DNA of 64,000 bases from NCBI GenBank assembly GCA_022821685.1, contig JAJEDD010000027.1, positions 1,403-65,402 of the forward strand, in the 5' to 3' direction. Both the position numbers and the translations under genes were made by a program. This stretch comes from Acidimicrobiia bacterium. GTDB lineage: Bacteria; Actinomycetota; Acidimicrobiia; Acidimicrobiales; Aldehydirespiratoraceae. The notes below the pieces were generated by a model, which was given only the letters and a program-made list of their open reading frames with translations, was not told the DNA's origin and did no database searches. Shown here one piece after another: positions 8,241 through 30,923 of this stretch (the stretch's first letter is position 1; each line of letters opens with the position of its first letter).

Positions 8241-8249
8241 ACTGAAACC

Positions 8250-9464: not shown

Positions 9465-9476
9465 AGGCAGGCGAAG

Positions 9477-9632
9477 TTGATCCGGGACTCATCAGGTTGC
9501 CGCGGTTTCATTCCCGCTCTTGTTCGCTGCGCTCACGGGCCGCCCAAACCCCGGCGTCACAGCCCACGGCCTCGCCCGTATAGCCGGACTCGCTCACCTG
9601 CCCGCTCGGCCTCTGAAAGCAGGCGAAGTTGA
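9477..9632 (+). other. 51-codon relay ORF through the repeat element (duplicated TTG start to a TGA overlapping the real ligI-like TTG)
   Basis: My translation is TTG 9477 ... AGT TGA, with TGA 9630-9632 overlapping TTG 9629-9631. The frame is open across the whole element. It is below the ORF-track size cut-off. Confidence 0.35.
9484..9612 (+). repeat. dispersed intergenic repeat, long variant, flanked by a 23-bp direct repeat
   Basis: Core ttcattcccgctcttgttcgctgcgctcacgggccg. Flanks are ctgaaggcaggcgaagttgatcc (9461-9483) and ctgaaagcaggcgaagttgatcc (9613-9635). Confidence 0.85.
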
Positions 9633-10501: not shown

Positions 10502-11570
10502 CGCCGGCCTCCAGGCGGGGGTAGACGCGCCGGGCGTTGCCTTCGAAGATCTTGGCCCGAGCGGCATCGTCGAGGCTGGCGTTGTCGATGTAGCGGCGGG
10601 TGTCGTCGTAGTGGTGGCCGGTGGAGGGATCGACGCCGCGCACCGCGCCCACCATCTCCGACGCGAACACGATGTTGTCGACCGGCACCACGTCCAACAG
10701 CAGGTCGATGCCCCGCTGGTGGTACACGCAGGTGTCGAACCAGACGTGCTCCAGCAGCCCATCGAAGTCCCAGCCGGAGTCCTGGGCCATGCCTCTGAAG
10801 CGGCCCCAGTGGTAGGGAACGGCGCCCCCGCCGTGGGGGATCACCAGCCGCAGTCCGTCGAAATCGGCCGCGAAGCCGGAGGTCAGCGCCTGCATGAAGG
10901 CGGTGGTGTCGGCACCGAGGTAGTGCGAGCCGGTGGTGTGGAAGTTGTCGTTGCAGGATGCGCTCACATGGATCATGGCGGGCACGTCGAGCTCGCACAG
11001 TGCCTCCCACAGCGGCTGCCAGTAGCGATCCCAGAGGGGCGGCCCGCTCCAGTGCCCGCCGCTGGGATCGGGGTTGACGTTGCAGCCGACGAAGCCCATC
11101 TCCTCCACGCAGCGGCGCAGCTCCCGCACCGAGGCGTCGATGGGCGCCCCCGGCGACTGGGGCAGCTGGGCCGCGGGAGCGAAGTTGGACGGATACAGGT
11201 CGCACACCCGCCGGATCAGCTCGTTCTGGTGCTGCGACCAGAACCTGGAGGTGTGCTGGTTGCCGATGTGGTGGCCCATCCAGCTGGCCCGGGGCGAGAA
11301 GATCGTGAGGTCGGTGCCCCGCTCGCGCTGGAAGGCAAGCTGCGCGCCCTCCAGGCTCTCGCGGATCTCGTCGTCGCTGACCGCGATCTCGCCCTTGGCG
11401 CCCACATGATCGGGTTCGGCGGCCACCGCCGCCTTCTGGGCCTCGCGCCACTGCCCCACCGCGGCCGGGGCAGTGGTGTAGTGGCCGTGACAGTCGATGA
11501 TCACCGTTGGCGATCTTACGAGAGGGTCCGGCGAGGGAGTGACGCTGGGCGAGTGGACGGGCAGCGGCAC
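10494..11570 (-). CDS. LigJ-like amidohydrolase (4-oxalomesaconate hydratase family)
   Basis: VIIDCHGHYTTAP, PAMIHVSAS and VIPHGGGAVPYHWGRF. The start is uncertain (alternative GTG at 11504). Confidence 0.7.
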   Translation of the reverse strand: MPLPVHSPSVTPSPDPLVRSPTVIIDCHGHYTTAPAAVGQWREAQKAAVAAEPDHVGAKGEIAVSDDEIRESLEGAQLAFQRERGTDLTIFSPRASWMGHHIGNQHTSRFWSQHQNELIRRVCDLYPSNFAPAAQLPQSPGAPIDASVRELRRCVEEMGFVGCNVNPDPSGGHWSGPPLWDRYWQPLWEALCELDVPAMIHVSASCNDNFHTTGSHYLGADTTAFMQALTSGFAADFDGLRLVIPHGGGAVPYHWGRFRGMAQDSGWDFDGLLEHVWFDTCVYHQRGIDLLLDVVPVDNIVFASEMVGAVRGVDPSTGHHYDDTRRYIDNASLDDAARAKIFEGNARRVYPRLEAGVS

Positions 11571-17348: not shown

Positions 17349-18155
17349 TCACCGATCCTCCGGGCGAGGCTCGAGGCGAGTAGTCACCGCTCCGAGACCT
17401 CCCAGGTCGGCAACCACAGTCTCGCCGCCCGCCAGGGGGTGCATCGGCCCGAGTGCCCCCGTCATCACCACGTCGCCCGCCTTGAGCGGTGTGCCGCGGG
17501 CGCACATCGTGTCGGCGAGCCAGCGGGCCGCGTGCAAGGGGTGGCCGAGGCAGGCCGCGCCCTCCCCGGTCGATACCTCCGCACCGTCGATCCGCATCGA
17601 CATGGCAACGGTCCTCAGGTCCACGCGGTCGAGCGGCACAGGCCGACCGCCGAGCACATACACGCCGCAACTCGCATTGTCGGCCACGGTGTCGACGATG
17701 CGAATGTCCCAGTCGACGATCCGGCTGTCGACCACCTCGATCGACGCGAGCGCGTACGCGGTGGCGGCGATGATGTCGTTGAAGGAGTGCTCACCTCGGT
17801 CGAGGTCGTGTTCGAGCACGATGGCGACCTCGGCCTCGGCGCGGGGCTGAATGAGGCGCCCCGCCTCGATCTCGACGCCGTCGCCGTACTCCATGTCGAC
17901 GAACAGCGTGCCGAAATCGGGCTGATCGACCCCGATCTGGTCCATCACCGCCTTGGAGGTGACCCCGATCTTGCGCCCGCAGATGCGACGCCCCGCCGCT
18001 ACCGCGGCAACCGTGTTGTGATCCTGCACCGCGTAGGCCACGTCGATGTCGTCGTGGGTGCCGAGAATCTCCCTCACAGGGGCACACGGCACCCGCGAAT
18101 CGGCAGCATCTCGGAGCGCCGCGGCGGCCCTGGCCACAAGAGCGTCGCCGGTCAT
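17349..18155 (-). CDS. 2-keto-4-pentenoate hydratase family enzyme (MhpD/XylJ-like)
   Basis: 268 aa. ...GRKIGVTSKAVMDQIGVDQPDFGTLF..., ...EAEVAIVL... and ...DTVADNASCG... Confidence 0.85.
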   Translation of the reverse strand: MTGDALVARAAAALRDAADSRVPCAPVREILGTHDDIDVAYAVQDHNTVAAVAAGRRICGRKIGVTSKAVMDQIGVDQPDFGTLFVDMEYGDGVEIEAGRLIQPRAEAEVAIVLEHDLDRGEHSFNDIIAATAYALASIEVVDSRIVDWDIRIVDTVADNASCGVYVLGGRPVPLDRVDLRTVAMSMRIDGAEVSTGEGAACLGHPLHAARWLADTMCARGTPLKAGDVVMTGALGPMHPLAGGETVVADLGGLGAVTTRLEPRPEDR

Positions 18156-18412
18156 TGGCCTGGTGCCGGGTGCCCGCCGGGGTTGGTTTGGCGGGCTGCA
18201 GCTCCCGCCTCCTCGGCCAGGCGGGCCTGCTTGTCGGCCAGCAGTTCACCGCCGGTCATGAACTCGGTATTGGAGAACTCCGAGATCCAGACGCGCACCG
18301 ATTCGCGGGGTGCGCCGATGTGCTCGGCCATGGCCTCGGTGATCGCATCCATCAGGGCGCGCTTCTGTTCAGGGCTGCGACCCTCGGCCATATGCACATT
18401 CACTAACGGCAC
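18152..18412 (-). CDS. 4-oxalocrotonate tautomerase family protein
   Basis: MPLVNVHMAEGRSPEQKRALMDAITEAM has Pro-1 after Met and the tautomerase fold pattern. It has a 4-nt overlap with the downstream hydratase. Confidence 0.75.
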   Translation of the reverse strand: MPLVNVHMAEGRSPEQKRALMDAITEAMAEHIGAPRESVRVWISEFSNTEFMTGGELLADKQARLAEEAGAAARQTNPGGHPAPGQ

Positions 18413-18439
18413 GACGTCACCTGATCCCTGTTCGAGCCT

Positions 18440-18567
18440 ACGCGGGCAAGTAAGAGCCGGTCCGTCGCAACGGGGTCATTCCCGCTCTTGTTCGCTGCGC
18501 TCACGGGCCGCTCGGGCCACGGCCTCGCCCGTATGGGCCGGAATCGCTCACCCATGCGCTCGGCCTC
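18440..18567 (+). repeat. dispersed intergenic repeat, short variant
   Basis: gtcattcccgctcttgttcgctgcgctcacgggccgctcgggccacggcctcgcccgtatgggccggaatcgctc.. Its right end supplies the last ~6 codons and the stop of the 18548..19339 gene. Confidence 0.85.
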
Positions 18568-19339
18568 TCACCGAAACCGAGCCGAGATGGGAGTAGCGGG
18601 CGCACACCCGGGTTCCAGCGGCCAGCGGCTTGGCGTCGGTGGGGGCGCCTGCCAGGATGGTCCAACCAGCCTGCAGCCTCTGGCCGTGCTTTCCCAGGTG
18701 GTTGGCGAGCATGGCCACGCACCCGGCCGGATCGCCGAGCAGCGCAGCTCCGGCCGCGGTGGCCACGACTTCACCGTCCACTTCAAGGACACACCCAACG
18801 GTGGTGAGATCGGCGTCGCGGGGGCCGATGGCGCCAGACCCAATCGCGACTCGTGCCGCCGAGGTGTTGTCGGCGACGACATCGCTGAGCTTGAACGAGA
18901 ACGCCTCGTAGCGCGAGTCGATCACCTCGATGCCGCCGGTGACGGACTCCGTGGCATCGAGGACGTCCCCGCTGGTGAGGCCTGGGCCCGCGAGGTCGTC
19001 GCCCAACACGAACACGAACTCGGGTTCGCAGCGAGGGTGAATGAGCCCGCTGAGGTCGACCTCGCCGGAGTCGTCGAGGACCGACGACTCGAGCACCCAG
19101 CCGTACACCGGCTCGCTGACACCCATCTGCTCCTGCTTGGCTGCCGATGTCAGACCCAGCTTGGCGCCCGCGAGTGCATCACCCCGGCCGAGCCGAAGCT
19201 CCAGCAGCGCCGCCTGGATGGCGTAGGCGTCGTCGATGCTGAACTCGCCGACCTGCTTGGTGATGGCCGTCACCGCCGAGCAGTCGTCGGCGGCGGCGAG
19301 CAGGTAAGACGCCCACTCAGCGTGGTCGATCGATGTCAC
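18548..19339 (-). CDS. 4-oxalocrotonate decarboxylase / 2-oxopent-4-enoate hydratase family enzyme
   Basis: 263 aa. ...GAKLGLTSAAKQEQMGVSEPVYGWV..., ...EPEFVFVL... and ...DVVADNTSAA... Confidence 0.8.
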   Translation of the reverse strand: MTSIDHAEWASYLLAAADDCSAVTAITKQVGEFSIDDAYAIQAALLELRLGRGDALAGAKLGLTSAAKQEQMGVSEPVYGWVLESSVLDDSGEVDLSGLIHPRCEPEFVFVLGDDLAGPGLTSGDVLDATESVTGGIEVIDSRYEAFSFKLSDVVADNTSAARVAIGSGAIGPRDADLTTVGCVLEVDGEVVATAAGAALLGDPAGCVAMLANHLGKHGQRLQAGWTILAGAPTDAKPLAAGTRVCARYSHLGSVSVRGRAHG

Positions 19340-20592
19340 GGTCGCTCCAGATCCTCGCGGGCCGCCGCGGCCTCGATGTGCAGCTGCTTCATCTCCTCGG
19401 CGATCGGGCTGTAGCGCATCGAGCCGTCGTTGATCCAGTCGATCGCGAATCCGGCGCCACGGCCGAACTTCGACCGTTCGAGCGGCAGCTTGATCACGTC
19501 ATGGGGCTCCCGAACGACCGCCACCGGATCCTCGCCCCGCCCGACCGCCTGAATCGCTTCCTTGAACATGCGCCGACAGGCCAGCACCCCTACGTCACTC
19601 TTGGTGATCCTCTCGTTGACCCGGTCGGCAACCGGGCCCTGGGTGACCCACGCCATCACGTCCTGGCCCTCGATGTAGTCGACGATGTGGCGGCCGCGCT
19701 CGTCGATCCACTGATACTCGTAGTCAACAACAGGCAGATCGTCGTCGAGCTCCAGCCCGTCGGGGGCATGGACCGTGTAGAACAGCGCCCAAGTGTGGGT
19801 GTCATCGACCGGCACGCGGATCTGCATCTGATACACGCCGTTGCCGCCGACCCACATCTTGTAGGGGAAGACGAGCGGATGGCCGATCTTCCAGTCGTCG
19901 CTGTCCTCGGACTGGCCCTCAAGCAGGCGCCGCTTGATGATCCCGTGATCGAAGGGGTCGAACGCCACCTTCGCATGCTTGTTGGCCACGAACGACTCCG
20001 GCATCGGAGTCCCCTGCTGGCGGGCGATGAACTCGAAGTAGTTGCCATGGAGCGCCTCGACATGGTACGGATCAACGGCGTTCTCCATGATCTGAAGCCA
20101 GTTGCACGGCAGCAGGCTGTGGCCGACGTCCCGGTAGCCGCTCATCACGTAGGCCTCGTAGCGGGGAAGCTCCGGCGCGGGACCGTCGCCGACGTAGGCC
20201 CACACCATCCCGCCCAGCGCCTGCGCGGAGCCGGACCGAACCCCGCACCCGGCCCTGAACTTCGCTGACGAGTCCGGCTCGGCGAGGATCTCGACGCATT
20301 CCCCGGACGGGTTGAACAGCCAGCCGTGGTATCCGCAGCGCAAGCCGGCATCCTCGACGATCCCGTAGGTGAGCGACGCGCCGCGGTGCGGACAGCGCTC
20401 GTCCACGATCCCGTACTCGCCGGACGGGGTCTTGAACAACGCCCAGTTCTCGCCCAGGAGGCGCACCTCCTTGACGGGGAACTCGTCGAGCTCCCGCACG
20501 AACGCGACCGGGTACCAGTAGTGCCGCAGCACGTCGCCCATGGGCGTGCCGGGACCTACCTGGGTGAGCTCGTCGTTCTCTTGCGGTGTCAT
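19336..20592 (-). CDS. Rieske [2Fe-2S] / mononuclear-iron aromatic oxygenase, alpha-only (phthalate-family-like)
   Basis: Trimmed to ATG 20592, with aaggggg upstream. The Rieske motif is CPHRGASL...CGYHGW and the iron site is NAVDPYHVEALH. Confidence 0.9.
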   Translation of the reverse strand: MTPQENDELTQVGPGTPMGDVLRHYWYPVAFVRELDEFPVKEVRLLGENWALFKTPSGEYGIVDERCPHRGASLTYGIVEDAGLRCGYHGWLFNPSGECVEILAEPDSSAKFRAGCGVRSGSAQALGGMVWAYVGDGPAPELPRYEAYVMSGYRDVGHSLLPCNWLQIMENAVDPYHVEALHGNYFEFIARQQGTPMPESFVANKHAKVAFDPFDHGIIKRRLLEGQSEDSDDWKIGHPLVFPYKMWVGGNGVYQMQIRVPVDDTHTWALFYTVHAPDGLELDDDLPVVDYEYQWIDERGRHIVDYIEGQDVMAWVTQGPVADRVNERITKSDVGVLACRRMFKEAIQAVGRGEDPVAVVREPHDVIKLPLERSKFGRGAGFAIDWINDGSMRYSPIAEEMKQLHIEAAAAREDLERP

Positions 20593-20623
20593 GGTGAAGG
20601 CCCCCTTCGAGGACGGCGTTGAG

Positions 20624-22417
20624 TCAGTCGAGGATGGTGACGGTGCCCGAGGATCCATCGACCCGGATCCGGTCACCGGTGCTGATCGTGTTGGTCCCGA
20701 AGCCGGTTCCGGTCACAGCCGGGACGCCGTACTCGCGGCACACGATGGCGGCGTGGCTCATCATTCCGCCGATGTCGGTGACGCAGGCCCGGATCTTGGG
20801 GAAGACCGGGGCCCAGCTGGGCGCCGTGATCGGGGCGACGAGGATCTCGCCCTCCTCCAGTTCGCCCACATCGGCGGGGGAGAAGACGAGGCGGGCGACC
20901 CCCTCGGCCACACCCGGCGACGCGGCCATGCCGGTGATGCCATCGGCGTCGGCCCCCGCGCCCAGCCAGGAAGCCACCGACTCGCTGGTGATGCCCCACA
21001 ACATGATGGTGAAGGGCTCGGTGATGACCTCGGGCGGCTCGCCGAGCGCCTTCGGCGCCTGCCACTGCGACAGCTTGGCGTGGATGGCGCGACGCCTCTC
21101 CACAACCGGCCCCCACTTGGCCGCGCTCATCGTGGGGGAGTTCACGGCCCAGTTGGCGTAGTAGTCCCACAGGATCTGGTCGACCTCGTCGGGGCGCACG
21201 AACAGAAGATCGTCATCGTGGGCGAGCAGGCCGTCCTTGGCCAGGGTGGCGCCGAGCTCACGGACCTTGCGCCACACGACCGACATCGCCCAGTGCTCGA
21301 TGTAGAAGTTGTGGTTCTCGACGTAGGGGAACACAACCCGTGCGAGACCGAGCTTGGAGTCGAAGGCCTCCCGGTCTTCGTCACCGTTGAGCAGATCGCG
21401 ATACTCCGCCACGACCCGGTCGCGCTCGGCGGTGATGGCCTCAATCGGCCGGGTGATGTCCTCACCGGCCTCGATCTTGGCGATGTAGTCGCGGATGAAG
21501 CCGTAGGGGACCGACCGCTCCTCCTTCCAGATCTTGTCGAAGTGGTAGAAGCCGTTCCCGGACGTGAAGTTGAACCACGGATCCTCCACCGCATCCCAGG
21601 CGGCCTGCCATTCGGCGCCCGGGCCGCCCTCGAGCGACACGTTCTCGGGGTCGTCGAAAGCGCGGGCGATGCCTAGGTCGACCGCCTTCTGGGCGAGCAC
21701 CTTGAGCTCCTCGTTGGGGCGGAACAGGTCCACCTCGACGCCGGCGACCATCTTGGCGATCCCGAGATCGGGAATCGAGGGGAACGCCTCCTTGCAGAAG
21801 CCGAAGAAGTCCAGGTAGGCGGCGTAACCGAGGTTCAGGAACTCGAAGTGGTAGTTCCAGGCCTCGAGAACCAGATCGCGGAACTGGTGATACGACTTCA
21901 GCAGCTCGAAGCCACTGCCGAGACCGATGCCGCCGGTCACAACCTCGAGATCCTCCATCTCGGGCAGCGGGTTGAAGTCGAGCGCCTCGATGCGGGCGAT
22001 CGTGTCCTTGACCTTGCCCAGCCACTTGTCGTACAGATCGTTCCAGTTGCCGAAATAGAACCCGGCTCGCTCCATGAACTGCGGCACACGGTCCGCGATC
22101 TTCGACGGATCGACGCCGACCGGCGACAGGTACGCATAGCCGTAGAGGACTCGGAAATCGACGCCGTCGGCGGGCGGAATCCGGTAGTGCCGGCTGTTCA
22201 TCTGGCTCAACGAGGCGAGAGCGACCTCGAAGAAGTACGAGTCCCAGGGCGTCATTGCGTGACCCCAGTGCATCGAATCCCAGAACCAGAAGCGGTCGTC
22301 CTCGTACTGCCGCCGGGCCGCGCCGAACGACGCGGACGGGGAGTACAGCTCCTCCCAGCCCTCGACTCCTTCGGGTCCTTCGACCTCGAACGGGCTCTCA
22401 AAACGATTGGTGGACAT
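20624..22417 (-). CDS. PEP-utilizer (phospho-histidine swivel) domain protein with a ~480-aa uncharacterised N-terminal region; PpsA(phenylphosphate synthase)-like architecture
   Basis: The C-terminus reads GMAASPGVAEGVARLV...ILVAPITAPSWAPVF...TDIGGMMSHAAIVCREYGVPAVTG. No PEP/pyruvate TIM-barrel domain is visible. Confidence 0.8.
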   Translation of the reverse strand: MSTNRFESPFEVEGPEGVEGWEELYSPSASFGAARRQYEDDRFWFWDSMHWGHAMTPWDSYFFEVALASLSQMNSRHYRIPPADGVDFRVLYGYAYLSPVGVDPSKIADRVPQFMERAGFYFGNWNDLYDKWLGKVKDTIARIEALDFNPLPEMEDLEVVTGGIGLGSGFELLKSYHQFRDLVLEAWNYHFEFLNLGYAAYLDFFGFCKEAFPSIPDLGIAKMVAGVEVDLFRPNEELKVLAQKAVDLGIARAFDDPENVSLEGGPGAEWQAAWDAVEDPWFNFTSGNGFYHFDKIWKEERSVPYGFIRDYIAKIEAGEDITRPIEAITAERDRVVAEYRDLLNGDEDREAFDSKLGLARVVFPYVENHNFYIEHWAMSVVWRKVRELGATLAKDGLLAHDDDLLFVRPDEVDQILWDYYANWAVNSPTMSAAKWGPVVERRRAIHAKLSQWQAPKALGEPPEVITEPFTIMLWGITSESVASWLGAGADADGITGMAASPGVAEGVARLVFSPADVGELEEGEILVAPITAPSWAPVFPKIRACVTDIGGMMSHAAIVCREYGVPAVTGTGFGTNTISTGDRIRVDGSSGTVTILD

Positions 22418-22480
22418 GTCTCCTCCTGGGTATTGCGGTCGTGGTCTCGGTGGTTGGTCGACTTGAGGTGGGTGCGGCGG

Positions 22481-23572
22481 TCATCGTGCGTCTGGGGGGT
22501 CAGACTTCTTGTGAAGCGGCGACACGAGCGTCGAGACGATCGACGCCATCGTGTCGGTTCCGCCCCGGTTGAGCGGCTGCGTCTGCCGGCGCGACCAGAC
22601 GGTCTCGGGGCGACTCTGCAGCATCAGCACGTTCTCGCCCTCGGGCAGGTGCCGATCGATCGCCCACTCGACGTCTTGTGGGCAGCCATAGTGCTTCTCG
22701 GCCCGGCGGGCGAGTTGGGCGATTGCGACCAGCTCCGCATCGGACACCGACGCCTGAGCCTGACGGTCAACCTCGATCTCGACCTTCTCGACTACGCCGT
22801 CATCGGTGAGGCGATACTCCATGTGCTTGTGAGAGATCTCACGCTTCACCACCTCGTGCAGGACCTTGTCGACCAGGAAGTTGTCCGGGGTCACCTCACC
22901 GGACACGACAGCCTCGCCGAGCCCCCACGATGCGTCGATCGCCACCTGCGAGCGATCGCCATTCGACGGGTTGAGGGTGAAGGCCACCCCCGACGAGATC
23001 GGATCAACCATCTTCTGCACGCCGACCGACATCCCGATCCCCCGGTGGAGGTACCCCATCTGATGGCGGTAGGCGATGGCGCGGTCGGTGAACAGCGACG
23101 ACCAGCATCGCCGCGTGTGCTCGATCACCGACTGCACCCCGCAAATCCACAGGTACGTGTCCTGTTGCCCGGCGAAACTGGCGTCGGGGAGGTCCTCCGC
23201 GGTGGCCGACGATCGCACCGCGACGGGCAGGTCCGCGAGGTCGCAATGCGAGCACAGGTCCTCATAGGCGCGGCTCAGTGCGTCGACCACTTCCGCCGGC
23301 ACGGGGACGCTCTCGATGCGGCCGCGAATCCGGTTCGCCACCTCCGCGTTCTGCGCGAGATCATCGTGGTCGAGCTGTCGGAGCATGCCGTTGACGTCGT
23401 CGACGAGATCCTGGTGGCTCCAGATGATGCGGTAGGCCTCCGTGGTCAGCGCGAAACCGGGCGGCACCGGCATCCCGGCGCCCATCATCTCGCCGAGGCT
23501 GGCGTTCTTGGCGCCCACCAGCGGCTTCTGCTCGGGCTCATAGCGGTCGTACCACACGATGAACTCGGTCAT
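22481..23572 (-). CDS. PEP/pyruvate-binding ATP-grasp (PPDK_N-type) protein; PpsB-like
   Basis: Trimmed to ATG 23572 (alternative 23656). It contains LVGAKNASLGEM, VAVRSSATAEDLPDASFAGQQDTY and QDVEWAI. Confidence 0.8.
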   Translation of the reverse strand: MTEFIVWYDRYEPEQKPLVGAKNASLGEMMGAGMPVPPGFALTTEAYRIIWSHQDLVDDVNGMLRQLDHDDLAQNAEVANRIRGRIESVPVPAEVVDALSRAYEDLCSHCDLADLPVAVRSSATAEDLPDASFAGQQDTYLWICGVQSVIEHTRRCWSSLFTDRAIAYRHQMGYLHRGIGMSVGVQKMVDPISSGVAFTLNPSNGDRSQVAIDASWGLGEAVVSGEVTPDNFLVDKVLHEVVKREISHKHMEYRLTDDGVVEKVEIEVDRQAQASVSDAELVAIAQLARRAEKHYGCPQDVEWAIDRHLPEGENVLMLQSRPETVWSRRQTQPLNRGGTDTMASIVSTLVSPLHKKSDPPDAR

Positions 23573-23648
23573 GGACTCGCTCACCAGCCTCGCGGTGAAG
23601 GAGCGGACGGTCGGCAGCGCCTCGGCCCAGTCGATGATCGGACAGGCC

Positions 23649-24770
23649 TCACACATCGCATGGGCCTGCCCCTGAGCCTGGCGGCGCGGCGTCGCGGAAG
23701 CCGGCCCAGTCGTCGTGGACCGACCACTGCGGGAGCTGATCGATGTCGGGCACCTTCACCTCCTGCACACGATTGCGGTAGGCGACCGTCGCATCACGGC
23801 CGCCCGCCGTCCACGATGTGTCTTCGAGGAGCTTCACCCGGACATGTTCGGTGTTGTAGGGCTCACCGGGGTCGTAGCCGAGCGCCGACACGGCGAAAGC
23901 TCGAATGCAGCCCGAGTGCGAGCTGATGGCCAGGCGGGCGCCGGGGAACTCCGCGGACAGGCGATTGATTCCCGCCCAGAACCGCCGCACCGTCATCGAC
24001 GGCGGCTCGAAATGGACGAGCGGGATCGTCAGCCAGTGCTGGATCGGGTCGCCCCCGCCCTGTTGGGTTCGCCAGAACCGGTCCATCTCCACCAGCCAAA
24101 GCGGGCGATCCCCCGCTGCCGTGCGCTCATGGCCCTCGAGCAGGGCGCTGTACTGGCGGAACGCCGCGGTCACATCCTTCAAACCGTCGGGAGCGACGAA
24201 CTGGAAGTTACGGAATTCGGCGGCAGGCTCGGGCTCGACGACGATGACGGTTTTCTCGTACTGCGCGATCCCGTCAACGAGACCGCGGTGAATCTGTTGC
24301 GCGGTCTCCGCGGCCCGGTTGGTGGCCGCATGCCGGAACACGATGGTTTCACCGGACTTGATCCGCCGGGCCAGCGTCCGCCCGTAGGTGTGCGCCTGCC
24401 ATACGCCCTGCGGCGTGAGCCCGGAGTCCGTCGAGTAGCCCTGGGTCTCGCCGTGGCGGATGAGGTACACGTCGTTGAGGACCTGCCGGACGGCCGACGG
24501 CGGCGCGGCGACCTCCTTGTTGCGGTTGTCCTCGGTCAGCGCCTGTTGCGTCGCGAGGTCGGAGCGTTGCCAGAGGGGGGCGTTGGGCTGCGGCGGCGCG
24601 CCGCGGCCGCGGAACCGCTTCAGGTAGATCGGCAGGCTCGACGGGGAACCGTCCTCGTCGGCCGTCTCTTCGGGCGGCGGCCGTCGGTGACGCTCGCGGA
24701 ACCGGGCCAGGTACAGCGGAGCGTCAAAGCGGTCGCTGCGCTCGGGTGGCCGGCTGCCGTTGTCGGTCAT
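23649..24770 (-). CDS. histidine-phosphatase-fold protein with an N-terminal Arg/Pro-rich extension
   Basis: Trimmed to ATG 24770, since the longer ORF overlaps the dioxygenase gene. It has the RHG motif VYLIRHGETQGYS and a later ...ISSHSGCIRA... (His). The extension contains the duplicated PLYLARFRER / PIYLKRFRGR. Confidence 0.7.
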   Translation of the reverse strand: MTDNGSRPPERSDRFDAPLYLARFRERHRRPPPEETADEDGSPSSLPIYLKRFRGRGAPPQPNAPLWQRSDLATQQALTEDNRNKEVAAPPSAVRQVLNDVYLIRHGETQGYSTDSGLTPQGVWQAHTYGRTLARRIKSGETIVFRHAATNRAAETAQQIHRGLVDGIAQYEKTVIVVEPEPAAEFRNFQFVAPDGLKDVTAAFRQYSALLEGHERTAAGDRPLWLVEMDRFWRTQQGGGDPIQHWLTIPLVHFEPPSMTVRRFWAGINRLSAEFPGARLAISSHSGCIRAFAVSALGYDPGEPYNTEHVRVKLLEDTSWTAGGRDATVAYRNRVQEVKVPDIDQLPQWSVHDDWAGFRDAAPPGSGAGPCDV

Positions 24771-24828
24771 GCTCGGTCTCGGCTCCGATCCGGGCCGGTG
24801 CGCCGGGCCGTGCGGGCACCGTGTCGCC

Positions 24829-25749
24829 TCATGAGTGCACCGACATGAATCTCTGATCGACCTGTCCCCGGTACGAGAAGATCGCCCTTCCCATTTCCGC
24901 CTCGGTCCAGGTGGTCGGCTCGTCGTCGGGGTCGAACTGGTAGCCGCCGGTGAACACCTCGTTGCGGTTTCCAGCCGGATCGAAGAAGTACAGGCCGCAG
25001 CCCCGGGTGGCGCCGTGCCGGGTGGGGCCGGCATCGATCGGCACGCCGTGGTAGGTGCAGACGTCGGCGGCGGTGCGCAAGTCGTGCCACTCGTCGACCC
25101 AGTAGGCGAGGTGATGGAAGCCGCCGTCGGGTCCGGTCAGGAAGGCGACATCGTGAGCGGTGTGGCTGCGCTCGAGGAAAGTGACCAGTTGATGCCCGTC
25201 GTCGGCTAGGACCTGCTCGGTCAATCGAAACTCCAGCACGTCTTGGAAGAACCGCGTGACCCCGTCGACGTCTTCGCAGAGCAGGAAGATGTGGTCCACA
25301 CGAGGCGGGTGGATGCCGACGAGATGGTCCGGGGCGGGAGGCGGGTTGATCACCGGGAGGCCGTTGCCGACCTGCGCCATCCCGCATTCGAGGTCGACGA
25401 TGTGCCCACTCGGCGCGAGGAATCGCGCCGTCGTGCCCGATCCCTCAGCCAATTCGCCGGGCTCGAACCACTCCACCGCGAGCCCAGCCGCCACAACCCG
25501 CTCGGCCAGCCGGTCGAGCTCGGCTGAAGCAACCACCTTGAACGCCAGGTTGTCGAGCCCGTAGGTGGGTGCCTTGCGGAGGATGAGCGAATGATGCTGG
25601 TGCTCGTCCCAGCCCTTCAGGTACGCCCGCTCGGGCTCTTGGCCGGTGACGACCAGCCCGACGACCTCTGCGTAGTAGGCGAGCGCCAGTTCAAGATCAG
25701 GGACGCGCACCGTTGCGTGCGAGAGCCGCAGAATCCCCGGCGACGTCAT
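24829..25749 (-). CDS. type I extradiol (catechol 2,3-) dioxygenase, paralogue A
   Basis: 306 aa. RVDHIFLL, HDVAF, FHHLAYW, PTRHG, LYFFDPAGNRNEVF (His/His/Glu and catalytic residues in the XylE-like order). Confidence 0.9.
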   Translation of the reverse strand: MTSPGILRLSHATVRVPDLELALAYYAEVVGLVVTGQEPERAYLKGWDEHQHHSLILRKAPTYGLDNLAFKVVASAELDRLAERVVAAGLAVEWFEPGELAEGSGTTARFLAPSGHIVDLECGMAQVGNGLPVINPPPAPDHLVGIHPPRVDHIFLLCEDVDGVTRFFQDVLEFRLTEQVLADDGHQLVTFLERSHTAHDVAFLTGPDGGFHHLAYWVDEWHDLRTAADVCTYHGVPIDAGPTRHGATRGCGLYFFDPAGNRNEVFTGGYQFDPDDEPTTWTEAEMGRAIFSYRGQVDQRFMSVHS

Positions 25750-26666
25750 GTGTGCACCGTTGCGAAGCGCTCGTTGAGCACGCCCTCGTAGTAGAAGACG
25801 GCACGCCCGGCTCGGTCGTCGGTCCAGGTGATGGTCGGGAAGTCCGGATCGGGCCGGTAGCCGCCGGAGAACACCTCGTTGCGGGTGCCCATCGGATCGA
25901 AGAAGTAGATCGTGCTGCCGCGGGTGAGGCCGTGGCGGGTGGGGCCGACATCGATGGTCACCCGGTGGTACGCCAGGAGGTCGGCAGCCCGGCGGACATG
26001 GTCCCAGTCGTCGAGCCAGAACGCGAAGTGGTGGAGCGCTCCGTTGGGGCCGCTTACGAAGGCGATGTCGTGGGGCTTCGCCGAGCGCTCCAAGAAGGCG
26101 ATGGTCTGATGCCCGCCGCCGTCGAGGAGTTGCTCGGTGAGCCGGAAGTCGAGCACGTCCTCGAAGAAGCGGGCGGCCTCTGCCACTTCCTCAGCATGCA
26201 CCAGCAGGTGGTCGATGCGCGGCGGTGCGATCCCTCGCGGGTCGGCCACGATTGGGGGCGGATTCAGCAACGGCAGGCGCGAGCCGACCTTCTCGACGTC
26301 GTAGACCAACTCCATCTCGTGGCCGGAGGGAACTTCGAAGCGGATCGACTCGCCCTGCCCGACCTCCTCGTTGCGGCTGACGCGCCGCACCGGCGAGCCG
26401 GCCCGCTCGATGCGGGTCTCGAAGGCATCGATGTCGCCGGGATGATCGACCTTGAAGGCGAAGCGGTCGATGCCCACCCGAGTGTCGTGACGAATCGCCA
26501 GGCAGTGATGGTCCCGCTCGTCCCAAGCCTTGAGGAAGACCCGCTCACCGGTCTCGTCGGCGACTCGCCCGCTGATGTCGAGGCCCATCACCTCGGTGTA
26601 GTACGCGGTGGCCAGTTCAAGATCCGGTGCCGTGATGTCGACATGGCTCAGACGCAGAACCCCCAC
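25746..26666 (-). CDS. type I extradiol (catechol 2,3-) dioxygenase, paralogue B
   Basis: 306 aa. RIDHLLVH, HDIAF, LHHFAFW, PTRHG, IYFFDPMGTRNEVF. ATGA overlap with paralogue A. Confidence 0.9.
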   Translation of the reverse strand: MGVLRLSHVDITAPDLELATAYYTEVMGLDISGRVADETGERVFLKAWDERDHHCLAIRHDTRVGIDRFAFKVDHPGDIDAFETRIERAGSPVRRVSRNEEVGQGESIRFEVPSGHEMELVYDVEKVGSRLPLLNPPPIVADPRGIAPPRIDHLLVHAEEVAEAARFFEDVLDFRLTEQLLDGGGHQTIAFLERSAKPHDIAFVSGPNGALHHFAFWLDDWDHVRRAADLLAYHRVTIDVGPTRHGLTRGSTIYFFDPMGTRNEVFSGGYRPDPDFPTITWTDDRAGRAVFYYEGVLNERFATVHT

Positions 26667-26741
26667 GCCGGCGACAGTAGCGGCGGCCCTTCCGGCCGGG
26701 CCAGCAACATCCCGTATAGCGGGAAGAACTAGGCTTCGACC

Positions 26742-27509
26742 GTGTCCCGCAACCGCCTGAGGACCGTGGCCAGCGCCGCCACAGTGCTCAAGACATTCAC
26801 GGCGTCCCGGCCGGACTGGGGTGTGTCCGATCTAGCGGCGCATCTCGGCAAGTCCACGTCGTCGGTGCATCGCATCCTCAGCACCCTCGCCGACGAGAAG
26901 TTGCTCGAGCAGGATCCCGAAACGGGGCGCTACAAGCTGGGGCTGGCGCTCTTCGACCTCGCGGCGGCGGTGCCGTCGCAACGCACACTGCAAGAGGCGG
27001 TGCTGCTGCCGATGACCGACCTGCGCAACACAACCCGCGAGACCGTCCAAGTCGGCGTGCTCGACGGTCGCCACGTGGTGTATGTCGAGCGGTTGGACAG
27101 CCCCCACAGCCTCCGGTTCTTCAGTGAGTTCGGCCGCCGCGCCGACGCCCATTGCACTTCGACGGGCAAGGCGCTGCTGGCGTACACGCCGACCTCGCGC
27201 CTCGACCGGCTGCTCAAGGGCTGGGATCTGCCCCAGCGCACCGAGCACACGATCATCGCTCACAGTGCCTTGCGAGCTGAACTGAAACGCGTGCGTCGGA
27301 GGGGATTCGCAACCAACCGGCACGAGTCGGCAGTCGGGGTGGTCTCCATCGCCGCCCCGATCCGGGACCAGAGGCGGACGACCGTGGCCGCCATCAGCGT
27401 GGCCGGTCCAGCCGAGCGGTTCGACGAGCACCAAGACTCGATCGCCCAGGCGGTGACCCACGCCGCCCTCGCAGCCTCGCGCCGCCTCGGATTCACCGTC
27501 GCCGCGTGA
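26742..27509 (+). CDS. IclR-family transcriptional regulator
   Basis: wHTH region DLAAHLGKSTSSVHRILSTLADEKLLEQD followed by an IclR-type effector domain. Divergent from the dioxygenase operon. Confidence 0.9.
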   Translation: MSRNRLRTVASAATVLKTFTASRPDWGVSDLAAHLGKSTSSVHRILSTLADEKLLEQDPETGRYKLGLALFDLAAAVPSQRTLQEAVLLPMTDLRNTTRETVQVGVLDGRHVVYVERLDSPHSLRFFSEFGRRADAHCTSTGKALLAYTPTSRLDRLLKGWDLPQRTEHTIIAHSALRAELKRVRRRGFATNRHESAVGVVSIAAPIRDQRRTTVAAISVAGPAERFDEHQDSIAQAVTHAALAASRRLGFTVAA

Positions 27510-27584
27510 TGAGTTGTTCCCGCACTGCGGGACGCGGGGTGCCGGCGAGGCACGGATCGGCAATAGTGTGCACGCGACGAACCG

Positions 27585-28244
27585 ATGACCAACCGCAGCT
27601 ACGACATCCTCCTGCTCGACTTCGGCGGCGTGTGCCTCCTCAATCCCGTGGAGCTGCACCACGTCACCGAGGACCAGCTCGGGCTCCCGCCGGGGACGCT
27701 GAGGTGGATGGGGCCGGTTGACCCCGCCACCGATCCAGACTGGCAGGCCATGGCCGCTGGCAACGGCGTGACAGAACGCGAGTACTGGGAGAGGCGCGCC
27801 GCCGAGATCGGGGAGTTGGCGGGAGTCGAATTGACGCTGACGGCCTATATGCGGCTGATGTTCGACCCGCCGCGCTCCGAGCTCATTCGCCCCGAAGCAT
27901 TAGCCGTCGCCAGCCGAGCCAAGGCCGCCGGCCTCGGAGTCTCGGTCCTGTCGAACGACCTGCGCACATTCCATGGCCGTGTGTGGGAGCACGGCGTGGA
28001 GTTTCTCCAAGGCGTCGACCACATCATCGACTGCTCCGACACGAACATCTTCAAGCCCGATCCGAGGGCCTACGAGCGGGCCATCGAGATCGTGGCGACC
28101 TCGCCTGAACGAGTGCTGTTCATTGACGACCAGCAGCAGAACGTCGCCGGCGCCATCGGGGCCGGGCTCGCCGGCCGGTGGTTCGATATCGCGAACGCGA
28201 AGCAGGCCTGGCACGAAGTCGCGGCCACCCTCGGACTCGAATGA
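27585..28244 (+). CDS. HAD-superfamily hydrolase-like protein with atypical motif I
   Basis: YDILLLDFGGV (D-x-G instead of D-x-D), VLSND, K-P-D and FIDDQQQNV. Confidence 0.7.
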   Translation: MTNRSYDILLLDFGGVCLLNPVELHHVTEDQLGLPPGTLRWMGPVDPATDPDWQAMAAGNGVTEREYWERRAAEIGELAGVELTLTAYMRLMFDPPRSELIRPEALAVASRAKAAGLGVSVLSNDLRTFHGRVWEHGVEFLQGVDHIIDCSDTNIFKPDPRAYERAIEIVATSPERVLFIDDQQQNVAGAIGAGLAGRWFDIANAKQAWHEVAATLGLE

Positions 28245-28308
28245 GCCGCCCAGCCCCCATGCCGCCAGCAAGAACACGCGCGGAGAGCGACACCATGACC
28301 CCAGCACC

Positions 28309-29100
28309 ATGATCGACAACGACACGGTTGACGCAATCGCCCACGAACTGCGCCGGGCCGAACTCGACCGCGGCTGGTGCGCGCTTCCGTCGGAGAGGAT
28401 CAGCGGCCTGACGTGGGCTGATGCCCGAGCGATCGCTCGACGGCGAGACGCCCTGCGCCTCGATGACGGCGACACGCTCATCGGGTACAAGCTCGGGTGG
28501 ACGTCGCAAGCGATGCGCGAGGCCCTCAACATCGACCGCCCGAACTGGGGAACCCTCTGGCGCTCACAGGTGCTCGACGGCCAGCTCGACCTCGGCGAGC
28601 TGCGTCACCCGAAGGCGGAGCCCGAGATCGTCTTCATTGCCGCGGAGCCGATCGACAGTCCCTCAGTCACCGCCGACGACATCGGCTCGCTGGCCGAGGG
28701 CTGGGCACTGGGCATCGAGGTGGTGGATCCGCGGTGGGCGTCGTACGACTTCACCTGGCTCGACAACACCGCAGACAACTCGTCGGCGGGCAGAGTCGTC
28801 GTCGCCGGCGCGGCGGTCGACGGCCCGGCCGACCAGCAAGATCTTGTGGACGCGGCCATCGAGTTCTCCGACGGGACCACCACGAGACGCGGCCGCGGGA
28901 GCGCCGCCATGGGTTCGCCCGCGGCGGCGGTGGCCTGGCTCGCTCAGTCGCTCGCGCAGGAGGGCGAGCGCATCGAGAAGGGCCAGTGGGTGTTCACGGG
29001 CGGATTGACGGCCCCGTTCGATGTCGCGGCCGGAGGCCTCTACACGGCCCGATCCCCAAGACTGGGCAAGGCTCAGCTGTCGGTGCGCGGCAGTACGTGA
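28309..29100 (+). CDS. 2-keto-4-pentenoate hydratase / 4-OD family enzyme (third paralogue)
   Basis: ORF 27973..29100 trimmed to ATG 28309. It contains ...GYKLGWTSQAMREALNIDRPNWGTLW..., ...EPEIVFIA... and ...LDNTADNSSAG... Confidence 0.8.
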   Translation: MIDNDTVDAIAHELRRAELDRGWCALPSERISGLTWADARAIARRRDALRLDDGDTLIGYKLGWTSQAMREALNIDRPNWGTLWRSQVLDGQLDLGELRHPKAEPEIVFIAAEPIDSPSVTADDIGSLAEGWALGIEVVDPRWASYDFTWLDNTADNSSAGRVVVAGAAVDGPADQQDLVDAAIEFSDGTTTRRGRGSAAMGSPAAAVAWLAQSLAQEGERIEKGQWVFTGGLTAPFDVAAGGLYTARSPRLGKAQLSVRGST

Positions 29101-29112
29101 CCTGCCTTGCCC

Positions 29113-29583
29113 TCAGGGCCCGATGACTCGCTTCTCGATCTCGCTCCAGCAGGCCGCGGCGCGGTCGGCATCGAACAGCAGCGCCTCCATGCCGGCCGCA
29201 CGAGCCCCGGCGACGTTCTCGGGCTCGTCATCGACGAAGAAGACCTGATCGGCTGAGCTGTCGGTCACCATGAGTGCCCGTTGGTAGGCACGGCGGTCCG
29301 GCTTGAGCACACCGTTGTCGGAGCAGGCGATGATGTGGTCGACCTCGGCTAGGAGCGGCACTGATGTCGCCCAGGACCGGTCGATCTCGTTGCTGAGGAT
29401 CGCGACGCAGATCCCGGCCGCCCGGGCCCGGGCCACAACCGGGCGGCACTCGGGTCGTGTGGTGTCGTGCTCGGCAACCAGAGGCGAACAGCCACCGGTG
29501 TCCTGCCCGGCCACGACCTCTTGGGGGCTCAGGGTGCACACGCCGCCGTAGTCCAACAGGAGCACGCCGATGTCGCGCATCAT
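29113..29583 (-). CDS. short HAD-like protein with atypical motif I
   Basis: GVLLLDYGGV, ILSNE, LKPD and FVDDEPENV. Its start has a 4-nt overlap with the upstream ATPase gene. Confidence 0.6.
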   Translation of the reverse strand: MMRDIGVLLLDYGGVCTLSPQEVVAGQDTGGCSPLVAEHDTTRPECRPVVARARAAGICVAILSNEIDRSWATSVPLLAEVDHIIACSDNGVLKPDRRAYQRALMVTDSSADQVFFVDDEPENVAGARAAGMEALLFDADRAAACWSEIEKRVIGP

Positions 29584-30923
29584 TGCTGCCAGAGAGTCGC
29601 GACGGGTGCGGACCAGATGGTGCCGCCGCCGGTGTCGCTAGAGGCTGGCGAGAGGATCGTCGGTCGTCTGGGGCCGGTGTGGAGCACTACGCCACCGGCG
29701 AAGCGGTCCCCAAGCTGGTCGCGAAGCCATAGCAGGTGCCGGGCCTCGTTCAGCCCGGCGCGGTCGCCAGCCTTGACCTCTACACCGACCACGCCCTGCA
29801 GGCCGCCGTCGAGCACGAAGTCCACCTCCTGACCGCCGTCGCGGCGGAAGTGGCGCAGCCGATAGCCCGCCACCGTGGGATCGTGCTCGGACCGGAGCTG
29901 CGCGGCCACGAACGTCTCCATCAACCGGCCTCGCAGGTCGCCGCTGCGACCGATCGCCCAAGCGTCGGCGTCCCACATCGCGGCGGCGAGTCCGGCGTCC
30001 ACCAGCAGTCGCTTGGGAGACTTCTGCACCCGGCTGACCCCGCCGGGAATGAAAGCCGGAGCCTCGCAGGCCAGGAAGGTTCGCTCCAGCAAAGCCAGAT
30101 ACTCGCGGCCAGTGGCCCGAGTGATGCCGCTCTGCGCGCAGAGCCGCGTCAATGGCATGACCCGGCCACTGTGGGACGCATAGACGCGAGCGAACTCGAG
30201 CAGCTTGACCCGGTCCTGGCGCCCGAGCAGAGAGTCGACGTTGAGGGTCTGATCGACGCGGGCTCGAAGCGCGGCCGCTCGCAGCGGCTTGGACGACATG
30301 GCCATGGGCCTCGGGTAACCGCTCACGAGGGCCATCTCGATGTAGTCGTTGGTGTTGAACGTCGACGCGGCGTCGCCGAGATCACCGGCCGCGAGCCTGT
30401 CGAACAGCGGGGCAGCGACCGTCTGTTGCTTCTCCGCCTCCGTCAGCGGGAACATGTCGAGCGGCACGACCCGCCCGGTGCTCGGCAGTTGGCTGGCCTG
30501 CGTCGAGCGGAACGAGCCGGTGATTATGAACAGCCCGTTCTCGGCGGGTGCCCGGTCGACGATGCGTTTGACCGTCCACAGCACCTCAGGCGCCTGCTGC
30601 CACTCGTCAATCAATATCGGGGTCTCGCTCGCCTCGAACGCAGCCTGGGCGTCACGCTGGAGCAGCTCCGCGTCGTTGGGGTCGTCGAGGTAGAAGCAAG
30701 TGCCGGCATGACGCTCGGCCGTGGTCGTCTTGCCGCAGCCTCTGGGGCCGCGCAGCTCGACCGCAGGCACGGCGGCCAGCATGTCGCTGAGCCGCCGGTC
30801 GACAAGCCGCGGGATGTAGGCCCCGGACGGCGATGCTTCAAGCCGCTCGCCGAGAGTACGGCTCGGCGCAGCCCGGTCACCGCTCGCCCGAGCGGAACCC
30901 TCAAGGTCGTGCCCGCTCTTCAC
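29580..30923 (-). CDS. AAA-ATPase (AAA_14-type) with DUF4143 and a C-terminal PD-(D/E)xK-like module, paralogue 1
   Basis: Walker A GPRGCGKTT, Walker B ILIDEWQ, and the C-terminal EVDFVLDGG...VGVEVKAG. GTG start at 30923. Confidence 0.8.
   Translation of the reverse strand: MKSGHDLEGSARASGDRAAPSRTLGERLEASPSGAYIPRLVDRRLSDMLAAVPAVELRGPRGCGKTTTAERHAGTCFYLDDPNDAELLQRDAQAAFEASETPILIDEWQQAPEVLWTVKRIVDRAPAENGLFIITGSFRSTQASQLPSTGRVVPLDMFPLTEAEKQQTVAAPLFDRLAAGDLGDAASTFNTNDYIEMALVSGYPRPMAMSSKPLRAAALRARVDQTLNVDSLLGRQDRVKLLEFARVYASHSGRVMPLTRLCAQSGITRATGREYLALLERTFLACEAPAFIPGGVSRVQKSPKRLLVDAGLAAAMWDADAWAIGRSGDLRGRLMETFVAAQLRSEHDPTVAGYRLRHFRRDGGQEVDFVLDGGLQGVVGVEVKAGDRAGLNEARHLLWLRDQLGDRFAGGVVLHTGPRRPTILSPASSDTGGGTIWSAPVATLWQQ

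Follow-up and report, generated by a model that had tools for sequence, protein, structure and literature searches.

We analysed a 64,000-nucleotide stretch of DNA (the window) from an Acidimicrobiia bacterium (contig JAJEDD010000027.1), in which a predicted two-component phenolic dikinase is encoded together with a Rieske oxygenase, a histidine-phosphatase-superfamily protein and two extradiol dioxygenases in a run of nine co-directional minus-strand genes, from position 26666 down to 17349; a divergent IclR-family regulator, two HAD-like genes and a third hydratase paralogue lie beyond the first gene of the run (Table 1). The original prediction, made from the letters and open reading frames (ORFs) of this stretch, had described the same arrangement: every gene that it named is present and intact where it had been placed, and the motifs that it quoted, including LLLDYGGV, were all found in the translations.

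The genes of the run are joined by overlaps of 4 or 8 nt or separated by gaps of 31–135 nt. In operon order, the dioxygenase a and b genes overlap by 4 nt; a 58-nt gap separates dioxygenase b from the phosphatase gene, which overlaps the ATP-grasp gene by 8 nt; gaps of 63 nt and 31 nt follow between the ATP-grasp and swivel genes and between the swivel and Rieske genes; the Rieske gene overlaps that of the 4-oxalocrotonate decarboxylase-like (4-OD-like) protein by 4 nt; and the 4-oxalocrotonate tautomerase (4-OT) gene stands 135 nt after the latter and overlaps the hydratase gene by 4 nt. These junctions were computed from starts that agree with independent database gene calls, including gene calls on the identical contig. 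The longest ORFs overshoot the true starts of the phosphatase (24770, 373 aa) and of the Rieske protein (20592, 418 aa), both of which are internal and were set by 100%-identical database proteins (P0121 and P0241).

The window is rich in GC (~0.67–0.69 around the cluster), and the closest homologues of the window proteins are from Acidimicrobiia. The housekeeping genes ilvBNC, gatAB and ligA lie downstream of the cluster, and we therefore regard the cluster DNA as chromosomal.

Table 1. Genes and putative operators of the cluster, with positions in the window
Feature	Position	Strand	Supporting match
Catechol 2,3-dioxygenase paralogue a, first operon gene	25746..26666	-	TIGR03211 352 bits; Pfam Glyoxalase + Diox-like_N
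Catechol 2,3-dioxygenase paralogue b	24829..25749	-	TIGR03211 343 bits
Divergent member of the histidine phosphatase superfamily, 373 aa	23649..24770	-	Pfam His_Phos_1 50.7 bits
ATP-grasp dikinase subunit, 391 aa (predicted)	22481..23656	-	Pfam PPDK_N E=1.5e-112
Swivel phospho-His and substrate-binding dikinase subunit, 597 aa (predicted)	20624..22417	-	NF006150 793 bits; PEP-utilizers
Alpha-only Rieske non-heme-iron oxygenase, 418 aa	19336..20592	-	Pfam Rieske + LigXa_C
4-Oxalocrotonate decarboxylase-like (FAA-hydrolase family)	18548..19339	-	TIGR03218 265 bits, below 350 cut-off
4-Oxalocrotonate tautomerase	18152..18412	-	NF002571 69.7 bits vs 55 cut-off
2-Oxopent-4-enoate hydratase-like, last operon gene	17349..18155	-	NF008461 316 bits, below 350; Pfam FAA_hydrolase
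Palindrome TCCCGTATAGCGGGA, IclR/dioxygenase divergent promoter region, putative IclR operator	26710..26724	.	exact match
IclR-family regulator, divergent	26742..27509	+	Pfam HTH_IclR + IclR_C
Second palindrome TCCCGCACTGCGGGA, between IclR stop and HAD1 start	27518..27532	.	exact match
HAD1, HAD-IA fold hydrolase, Gly at Asp+2	27585..28244	+	Pfam Hydrolase
Third hydratase/decarboxylase paralogue (FAA-hydrolase family), 263 aa	28309..29100	+	TIGR03220, TIGR03218 ~115 bits, far below cut-offs
HAD2, short HAD-like, 156 aa, reduced cap, D-Y-G-G-V	29113..29583	-	Pfam Hydrolase

The dikinase pair and its conserved gene block

The ATP-grasp (PPDK_N) and swivel subunits are encoded adjacently as separate polypeptides of 391 and 597 aa. 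The PEP-utilizers domain of the swivel subunit (residues 520–591 in Pfam) contains the motif T547-DIGGMMS-H555, which fits the pattern T/SxxGGxxxH. Position −2 is Met, and position −1 is Ser, a residue shared there with PpsA and CreH; in phenolic dikinases, Met occupies the −2 position held by the regulatory Thr in phosphoenolpyruvate (PEP) synthase (PMC12167813). The ~480-aa N-terminal region, which had been described as unassigned, proved to be assignable: in an NCBIfam search the swivel protein matches NF006150 (PRK08296.1-2) over its full length (793 bits vs. a cut-off of 650), and its alignments with CreH-, PpsA- and HpeH-type proteins extend along the whole protein.

Over residues ~2–597, the swivel subunit is 51% identical to the CreH-type, 48% to the PpsA-type and 43% to the HpeH-type protein, and the ATP-grasp subunit is 52%, 50% and 43% identical to the CreI-, PpsB- and HpeI-type proteins; the reference swivel subunits are 43–45% identical to one another, and the window protein is about equally close. 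The references are clusters recognised by their diagnostic context, and serve as stand-ins for the CreH, HpeH and PpsA sequences of the type organisms: Rhodococcus plasmids for the Cre type (L082, L086; IclR, P450, ATP-grasp, swivel, short-chain dehydrogenase (SDR), ferredoxin, reductase, HD phosphohydrolase and aldehyde dehydrogenase (ALDH)), Azoarcus KH32C for Pps (L083; PpsA, PpsB, the CBS protein PpsC and PpcBDAG), and a Rhizobium cluster with biotin carboxylase and HAD genes for the Hpe/Acv type.

Neither subunit contains a PEP/pyruvate TIM barrel in the Pfam and NCBIfam searches. The ATP-grasp subunit spans only the N-terminal ~340 positions of PEP synthase models, which match through the shared domains only and below cut-off (367 vs. 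598 bits); models of rifampicin phosphotransferase (RPH) likewise match the shared domains only (296 and 112 bits vs. a cut-off of 999). The full-length identity, the swivel motif, the NF006150 match and the lack of the barrel together assign the pair, as judged from sequence, to the two-component phenolic dikinase family (PpsAB, CreHI, HpeHI/AcvAB) rather than to housekeeping fragments. The PpsAB-like split architecture proposed in the original prediction was thus borne out, with both subunits being full-length homologues of the phenylphosphate-synthase type and not fragments of a housekeeping PEP synthase or PPDK. PpsAB-like pairs are also known from aerobes: CreHI opens 4-cresol catabolism in Corynebacterium, and HpeHI and AcvAB open aerobic acetovanillone and 4-hydroxyacetophenone catabolism; the two-component small-molecule dikinase subfamily is the structural equivalent of a split RPH (PMC12167813, PMC9618137). 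RPH shares the ATP-grasp/substrate-binding/swivel-His mechanism, but is a single polypeptide of ~865 aa.

Relatives were collected by a scan with one genome per GTDB species, which returned 560; the window proteins were mapped by tblastn onto the best 80 of these 560 loci, and presence was counted on 44 well-flanked loci. The recurrent order is a divergent IclR gene followed by dioxygenase a, dioxygenase b, phosphatase, ATP-grasp, swivel and Rieske genes, often with HAD1 directly after; it recurs in Acidimicrobiia, Nocardioides, Longivirga, Nanopelagicales, Pseudonocardiales, Streptosporangiaceae and others. Alongside the kinase, the Rieske, dioxygenase a, dioxygenase b and IclR genes are each present in 41 of the 44 loci, the histidine phosphatase gene in 40 (adjacent to the kinase in these 40), the 4-OD-like gene in 36 and HAD1 in 34. 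The kinase–phosphatase–dioxygenase–Rieske block is therefore syntenic in ~40 of 44 loci across several actinobacterial orders.

In a neighbour-joining (NJ) tree of 89 swivel subunits (tblastn-derived sequences, 100 bootstraps), the window protein falls outside the CreH, PpsA and HpeH clades and within a large group that carries the Rieske–phosphatase–dioxygenase context. The successive sisters of this group are a UbiD-linked pair from Chloroflexi, the Cre clade, PpsA and the biotin-carboxylase-linked Hpe group. The Cre clade, which is separate from that of the window kinase and includes Cre-type loci (L072–L080) with P450, HD and SDR genes, was recovered in 95 of 100 bootstraps; so was the grouping of the context group, the UbiD-linked pair and the Cre clade, outside of which PpsA (L083) lies; the context group with the UbiD-linked pair was recovered in 76.

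Variants of the pair and of its surroundings were seen among the related loci. In L075 (8948–11806), the ATP-grasp and swivel parts are fused in a 952-aa ORF, which is followed by a Pyr_redox_2 flavoprotein in place of the Rieske gene. A second dikinase pair, either Hpe-type (biotin-carboxylase-linked) or divergent, lies at most 10 kb from the Rieske-linked one in L058 (15030–20515), L062 (4280–5305) and L038 (19484). Distant members also carry two ORFs without a Pfam match that are absent from the window: a Cys-rich one of ~110 aa (CPRC...CAEC) directly after the Rieske gene (L046, 13079–13411, and ~38 other loci), and one of 228–268 aa between the IclR gene and the first dioxygenase gene (L046, 5040–5726, and ~33 other loci).

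Oxygenases, hydrolases and putative operators

The Rieske protein probably belongs to class IA (the phthalate family): the Rieske and mononuclear-iron motifs are present, with CPHR...CGYHGW, DPYHVEALH and GQDV conserved in 63 orthologues, and no beta-subunit gene accompanies it. Its best match in the Protein Data Bank (PDB) is the phthalate 4,5-dioxygenase PDO_KF1 (7FJL, E=1.6e-46). It shares with PDO_KF1 and other class IA enzymes the alpha-only composition, a PDR-type reductase in some related loci and, as far as characterised members go, a family preference for anionic aromatic substrates, but differs from PDO_KF1 in that the cluster has no diol dehydrogenase or decarboxylase and in an invariant Lys-Arg-Arg (KRR) triplet, which lies on the strand that bears the pocket residue Arg231 in PDO. 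We infer that this triplet might bind phosphate. A PDR/VanB-type reductase gene follows the Rieske and HAD1 genes in Nocardioides-type loci, and a Pyr_redox_2 flavoprotein gene does so in others; neither of these genes is in the window.

The nearest kinase-independent homologues of the Rieske protein are 44% identical and lie on replicons of Burkholderia, Caballeronia and Peribacillus, next to genes for Gfo/Idh/MocA dehydrogenases, PDR-type reductases and decarboxylase-like proteins; these clusters are of the classical cis-dihydroxylating type for aromatic acids. A LigXa_C match and an automated JGI label (“5,5'-dehydrodivanillate O-demethylase”, DDVA) would suggest O-demethylation for the window protein. 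We did not accept either as evidence, since the 44% homologues in dioxygenase clusters with diol dehydrogenases give the same Pfam pattern, and neither match nor label is therefore diagnostic. The closest of these homologues (L088, 7998–9236; L089, 7998–9254) are in aromatic-acid dioxygenase clusters of Burkholderia/Caballeronia insect symbionts and of an Arctic Peribacillus plasmid, which also hold Gfo/Idh/MocA dehydrogenase, class II aldolase-like and dihydroxyphthalate-decarboxylase-like genes.

Both extradiol dioxygenases score above the TIGR03211 equivalog cut-off of 320 bits. The two paralogues are 49% identical and intact, and both retain the Fe ligands and the catalytic His/His/Tyr; the best PDB matches of dioxygenase a are 5znh, 3hpv and 1mpy (~1e-70). 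The 4-OT has an N-terminal Pro (Pro1) after the start codon.

The phosphatase is, from its sequence, a member of branch 1 of the histidine phosphatase superfamily: its His_Phos_1 match exceeds the Pfam cut-off of 21.7 bits (Table 1), and RHGETQG and SHSG are found unchanged in all of 59 orthologues. It is enlarged by an N-terminal extension of ~100 aa. The AlphaFold model is of low confidence (pLDDT 61, pTM 0.55) and its Foldseek matches are histidine phosphatases only; the model supports the superfamily and nothing finer. Within the extension, residues 14–56 contain two conserved (L/I)YL(A/K)RF(R) motifs with a variable acidic linker between them.

The palindrome TCCCG-N5-CGGGA has exactly two exact matches in the window, one in the divergent promoter region and one upstream of HAD1. 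Among 49 related loci, 17 have it no more than 200 nt ahead of the first dioxygenase gene, and it lies upstream of HAD1 in seven of the 16 that have the same arrangement; the 1.5 Mb of related loci contain 37 exact copies in all, and 24 of these fall in the two small promoter windows. These occurrences point to a common putative IclR operator of the main operon and of HAD1 with the third hydratase paralogue (HAD1–Hyd3), and the shared palindrome therefore ties HAD1–Hyd3 to the main operon, both of which the IclR protein would control. A promoter scan of the locus found no sigma-70-like sites, terminator-like sites within the locus were not above shuffle expectation, and an Rfam scan of 15–31 kb gave no match at gathering score.

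HAD1 keeps the Asp nucleophile and motifs II–IV, with D-F/Y-G-G in at least 95% of 44 orthologues, and in distant loci it is placed between the Rieske gene, which it directly follows, and the reductase gene. HAD2 has DYGGV and likewise lacks the DxD of HAD phosphatases. Both had been counted in the cluster; this holds for HAD1, given its presence in 34 of 44 loci and the shared operator, whereas HAD2 is probably outside the system, because it is confined to close relatives and because the same-strand DUF4143 ATPase gene upstream of it (29580–30923) ends in a 4-nt overlap with its start. The third hydratase paralogue is also found only in closer relatives.

A proposed phosphorylation-initiated route and its alternatives

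We propose that the operon encodes an aerobic, phosphorylation-initiated route from a simple phenolic compound to a catechol, for which phenol, an alkylphenol or a 2-methoxyphenol are candidate substrates. In the first step, as family membership suggests, the ATP-grasp subunit would bind ATP and His555 would take the beta-phosphate, releasing AMP and Pi; the phosphate would then pass from His555 to the hydroxyl group of the phenol, which the N-terminal domain of the swivel subunit would bind, yielding an anionic aryl phosphate that would be unable to diffuse back out of the cell. In the second step, which synteny suggests, the Rieske oxygenase would oxygenate the aryl phosphate at the position beside the phosphoester, through ortho-hydroxylation or, if a methoxy group is present there, through its O-demethylation. 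The histidine phosphatase, possibly with HAD1, would then remove the phosphate to give a catechol; and, as the equivalog-level annotation indicates, the two catechol 2,3-dioxygenases would open the ring and the 4-OT, the 4-OD-like protein and the hydratase would process the product.

The phthalate-family enzymes characterised so far take anionic aromatic acids as substrates, so that a phenol, neutral as such, would acquire through phosphorylation the charge recognised by this class of Rieske oxygenase. The substrate of phthalate 4,5-dioxygenase is a dianion (PMC8649396). Trapping of the substrate in the cell by phosphorylation has been proposed for HpeHI (PMC12167813), and in the Cre and Hpe pathways the enzyme acting after the kinase requires its substrate in phosphorylated form, with a dedicated phosphatase for the final step (PMC9618137, PMC12167813). 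We put the probability of the general logic, i.e. that a phenol is phosphorylated, that the resulting aryl phosphate is the substrate of the Rieske oxygenase and that a catechol is cleaved in meta fashion, at about 0.55–0.6. The specific order in which enzymatic dephosphorylation comes last is more tentative, and we hold it with less than even confidence.

Several observations weigh against this route. HAD1 lacks the Asp+2 general acid/base of HAD phosphatases (DFGGV, with Gly at +2). Two well-flanked loci (L059, L062) have the kinase and the Rieske gene without the phosphatase, and one (L063) has the kinase and the phosphatase without the Rieske gene. The monophyly of the context-defined kinase clade has an NJ bootstrap of only 48%, owing to three basal loci that lack a Rieske gene and to the UbiD-linked Chloroflexi pair. 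The phthalate-binding residues of PDO_KF1, Arg207 and Arg244 (PMC8649396), are not conserved in the Rieske protein, the former aligning to a gap and the latter to Ile, and an identity as phthalate 4,5-dioxygenase was accordingly rejected. The type of reaction cannot be read from the sequence of the Rieske protein, and the occurrence of its 44% homologues in diol-dehydrogenase clusters speaks for dioxygenation rather than for mono-oxygenation or demethylation. Finally, the window contains no Rieske reductase or ferredoxin and no orthologue of hydroxymuconic-semialdehyde dehydrogenase, aldolase or acetaldehyde dehydrogenase; the missing reductase, aldehyde dehydrogenase and aldolase/acetaldehyde dehydrogenase may be encoded elsewhere in the genome.

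The main alternative assigns the phosphate the role of a leaving group: the Rieske enzyme would 1,2-dioxygenate the phosphate-bearing carbon and its neighbour, and the geminal hydroxy/phosphate intermediate would shed phosphate spontaneously to give catechol, leaving the phosphatase and HAD1 as safety valves for surplus or dead-end aryl phosphates, or for catechol re-phosphorylated by a promiscuous kinase. The cluster would then encode a dephosphorylating aryl-phosphate 1,2-dioxygenase, for which the phosphate is both anionic handle and leaving group and which yields catechol directly, so that neither phenol hydroxylase nor diol dehydrogenase would be needed. The conserved block indeed has no cis-diol dehydrogenase, whereas a Gfo/Idh/MocA dehydrogenase lies beside each 44% Rieske homologue; the best structural relative of the Rieske protein is a dioxygenase; and two loci have the kinase and the Rieske gene but lack the phosphatase. 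Eliminative or angular dioxygenation has precedents among class IA enzymes (phenoxybenzoate, 4-sulfobenzoate, carbazole). The aniline dioxygenase system offers a precedent for an ATP-dependent activating ligase and a Rieske dioxygenase that lead to catechol, with a hydrolase that limits the intermediate (PMC11335346). However, the phosphatase is conserved as strongly as the oxygenase (40 of 44 loci) and lies inside the operon, and in both characterised aerobic dikinase pathways the phosphatase reaction is a true pathway step. We know of no described aryl-phosphate dioxygenase. We regard the leaving-group role as doubtful, although sequence cannot separate it from the order in which an enzyme removes the phosphate last. 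If it were true, the cluster would represent an ATP-driven, high-affinity phenol scavenging route that is widespread among the Actinomycetota of water and soil, with Acidimicrobiia and Nanopelagicales among its carriers, and the histidine phosphatase and the Asp+2-less HAD would be proofreading hydrolases.

It is improbable that the route instead follows the side-chain chemistry of the Cre pathway, with a 4-alkylphenol being phosphorylated, the Rieske enzyme oxidising its alkyl side chain in the role of the P450 CreJ, and the dioxygenases forming a separate, co-located lower pathway. Of the reference clades, the Cre type is the nearest to the kinase (51–52% identity) and has the same ATP-grasp-then-swivel order, the two being joined with the UbiD-linked pair in 95 of 100 bootstraps, and the phthalate family includes methyl mono-oxygenases; but the block lacks the alcohol and aldehyde dehydrogenase genes that Cre clusters have (SDR and ALDH), the dioxygenase pair stands at the head of this very operon and accompanies the block in 41 of 44 loci, and the hydroxybenzoates produced by side-chain oxidation are not substrates of catechol 2,3-dioxygenases.

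Still less probable is an aromatic amine as the substrate, from which the dikinase would form a phosphoamidate for the Rieske enzyme to convert into catechol: Pps-type synthases have been implicated in phenylphosphoamidate formation in Desulfatiglans anilini (PMC7500099), and Amidohydro_2 and RidA-type genes flank the cluster in L081, but neither the window nor most loci contain a deaminase or RidA gene, and the characterised aerobic relatives all act on phenolic hydroxyls (PMC12167813). We give least credence to a fragmentary or housekeeping PEP synthase/PPDK, or a rifampicin-like phosphotransferase, that is in the operon by chance, since the NCBIfam matches of the ATP-grasp and swivel parts to PEP synthase and RPH models are far below cut-off and without the TIM barrel, whereas homology to phenolic dikinases is full-length and synteny with catabolic genes is kept across orders.

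The proposed phosphorylation-initiated route can be compared with several characterised systems. Cre of Corynebacterium glutamicum (CreHI/CreJEF/CreD) is likewise aerobic and IclR-linked, and its cluster also combines the dikinase with an O2-dependent oxygenase and a dedicated phosphohydrolase, the phosphorylated phenol being acted on; but Cre employs a P450 with ferredoxin and reductase on the methyl side chain, an HD-domain phosphatase and dehydrogenases that lead to 4-hydroxybenzoate, whereas the window has a Rieske oxygenase, a histidine phosphatase, an atypical HAD and two extradiol dioxygenases. No P450, HD phosphohydrolase, SDR or ALDH of Cre type was found in the block, and no P450 homologue in the window. 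The hydroxyphenylethanone pathways, Hpe of Rhodococcus rhodochrous GD02 (HpeHI/HpeCBA/HpeD) and AcvABCDEF of Sphingobium SYK-6, share the aerobic setting, a dikinase of 43% identity, a downstream enzyme specific for the phosphorylated intermediate and, after it, a dedicated phosphatase; they differ in a biotin carboxylase, a NagD-type HAD phosphatase (neither of which has a homologue in the window), the placing of swivel before ATP-grasp, and the absence of oxygenase and ring-cleavage genes from the cluster.

The anaerobic pathway of PpsABC and phenylphosphate carboxylase (Thauera, Aromatoleum; Azoarcus KH32C) shares the subunit architecture, 48–50% identity and the swivel-His motif, but has the CBS protein PpsC, a UbiD/UbiX-type carboxylase and a gene order and clade of its own. 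The window contains no homologue of PpsC, PpcA or PpcB, and the earlier remark that no UbiD/UbiX-type carboxylase is in view holds for all of it. Aniline dioxygenase (AtdA1-A5/TdnQTA1A2B) is alike in logic only, through ATP-dependent activation of a heteroatom, a Rieske enzyme that yields catechol, a reversing hydrolase and meta-cleavage; its glutamine-synthetase-like ligase and amidotransferase-like hydrolase are not homologous to the window proteins, and its Rieske component has two subunits.

We found no account of a dikinase–Rieske–histidine phosphatase–extradiol cluster in the literature searched, the coverage of which was incomplete. The original prediction, which did not recognise the combination as a described pathway and suggested transient phosphorylation of a phenolic or catecholic substrate or of an intermediate, is partly supported. 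All the sequence-based checks that it had called for agreed with it, but the principle of aerobic, phosphorylation-initiated phenol catabolism is already established (CreHI/CreJEF/CreD, HpeHI/HpeCBA/HpeD, AcvAB; PMC12167813, PMC9618137), so that only the partner set is new. Such catabolism has been recognised recently, in two characterised types (Cre and Hpe/Acv), and its discoverers call the need for the phosphate unclear. The present block would be a third type and the first link of a dikinase to ring oxygenation and extradiol cleavage. It is apparently far more widespread than the other two, as judged from the database clusters, which number more than 1,000 for the specialised phosphatase and more than 2,800 for homologues of the Rieske protein, and from the ~40 of 44 syntenic loci. 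As it occurs in abundant, poorly cultured aquatic Actinomycetota, it may matter for the turnover of phenolic dissolved organic matter, and it is a possible source of new enzymes for the conversion of lignin-derived phenols. Cultured carriers (Nocardioides zhouii, N. psychrotolerans, Longivirga aurantiaca) make the hypothesis directly testable.

Other features of the window

Directly beyond the last operon gene, 15404–17335 (+) encodes a 643-aa lipoprotein-like protein with a LAAC lipobox and a T/P/A/D-rich linker, which has no Pfam or NCBIfam match and was found in 0 of the 80 related loci; its ORF occupies the place that an aldehyde dehydrogenase gene takes after the hydratase gene in the close relatives L002, L006, L025 and L027. 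Two DNA methyltransferases, one C5 and one N6/N4, are encoded at 2863–3768 and 44405–45916, and the DUF4143 ATPase next to HAD2 has a paralogue of the same AAA_14 + DUF4143 composition at 36285–37616. Further genes of aromatic catabolism lie near the cluster: a mycothiol-dependent maleylpyruvate isomerase-like gene (923–1720), and protocatechuate 4,5-cleavage/lignin-type genes (5358–11570) that include three Amidohydro_2 genes and a 4-oxalomesaconate tautomerase (8250–9464; NF033377, 457 bits vs. a cut-off of 440).

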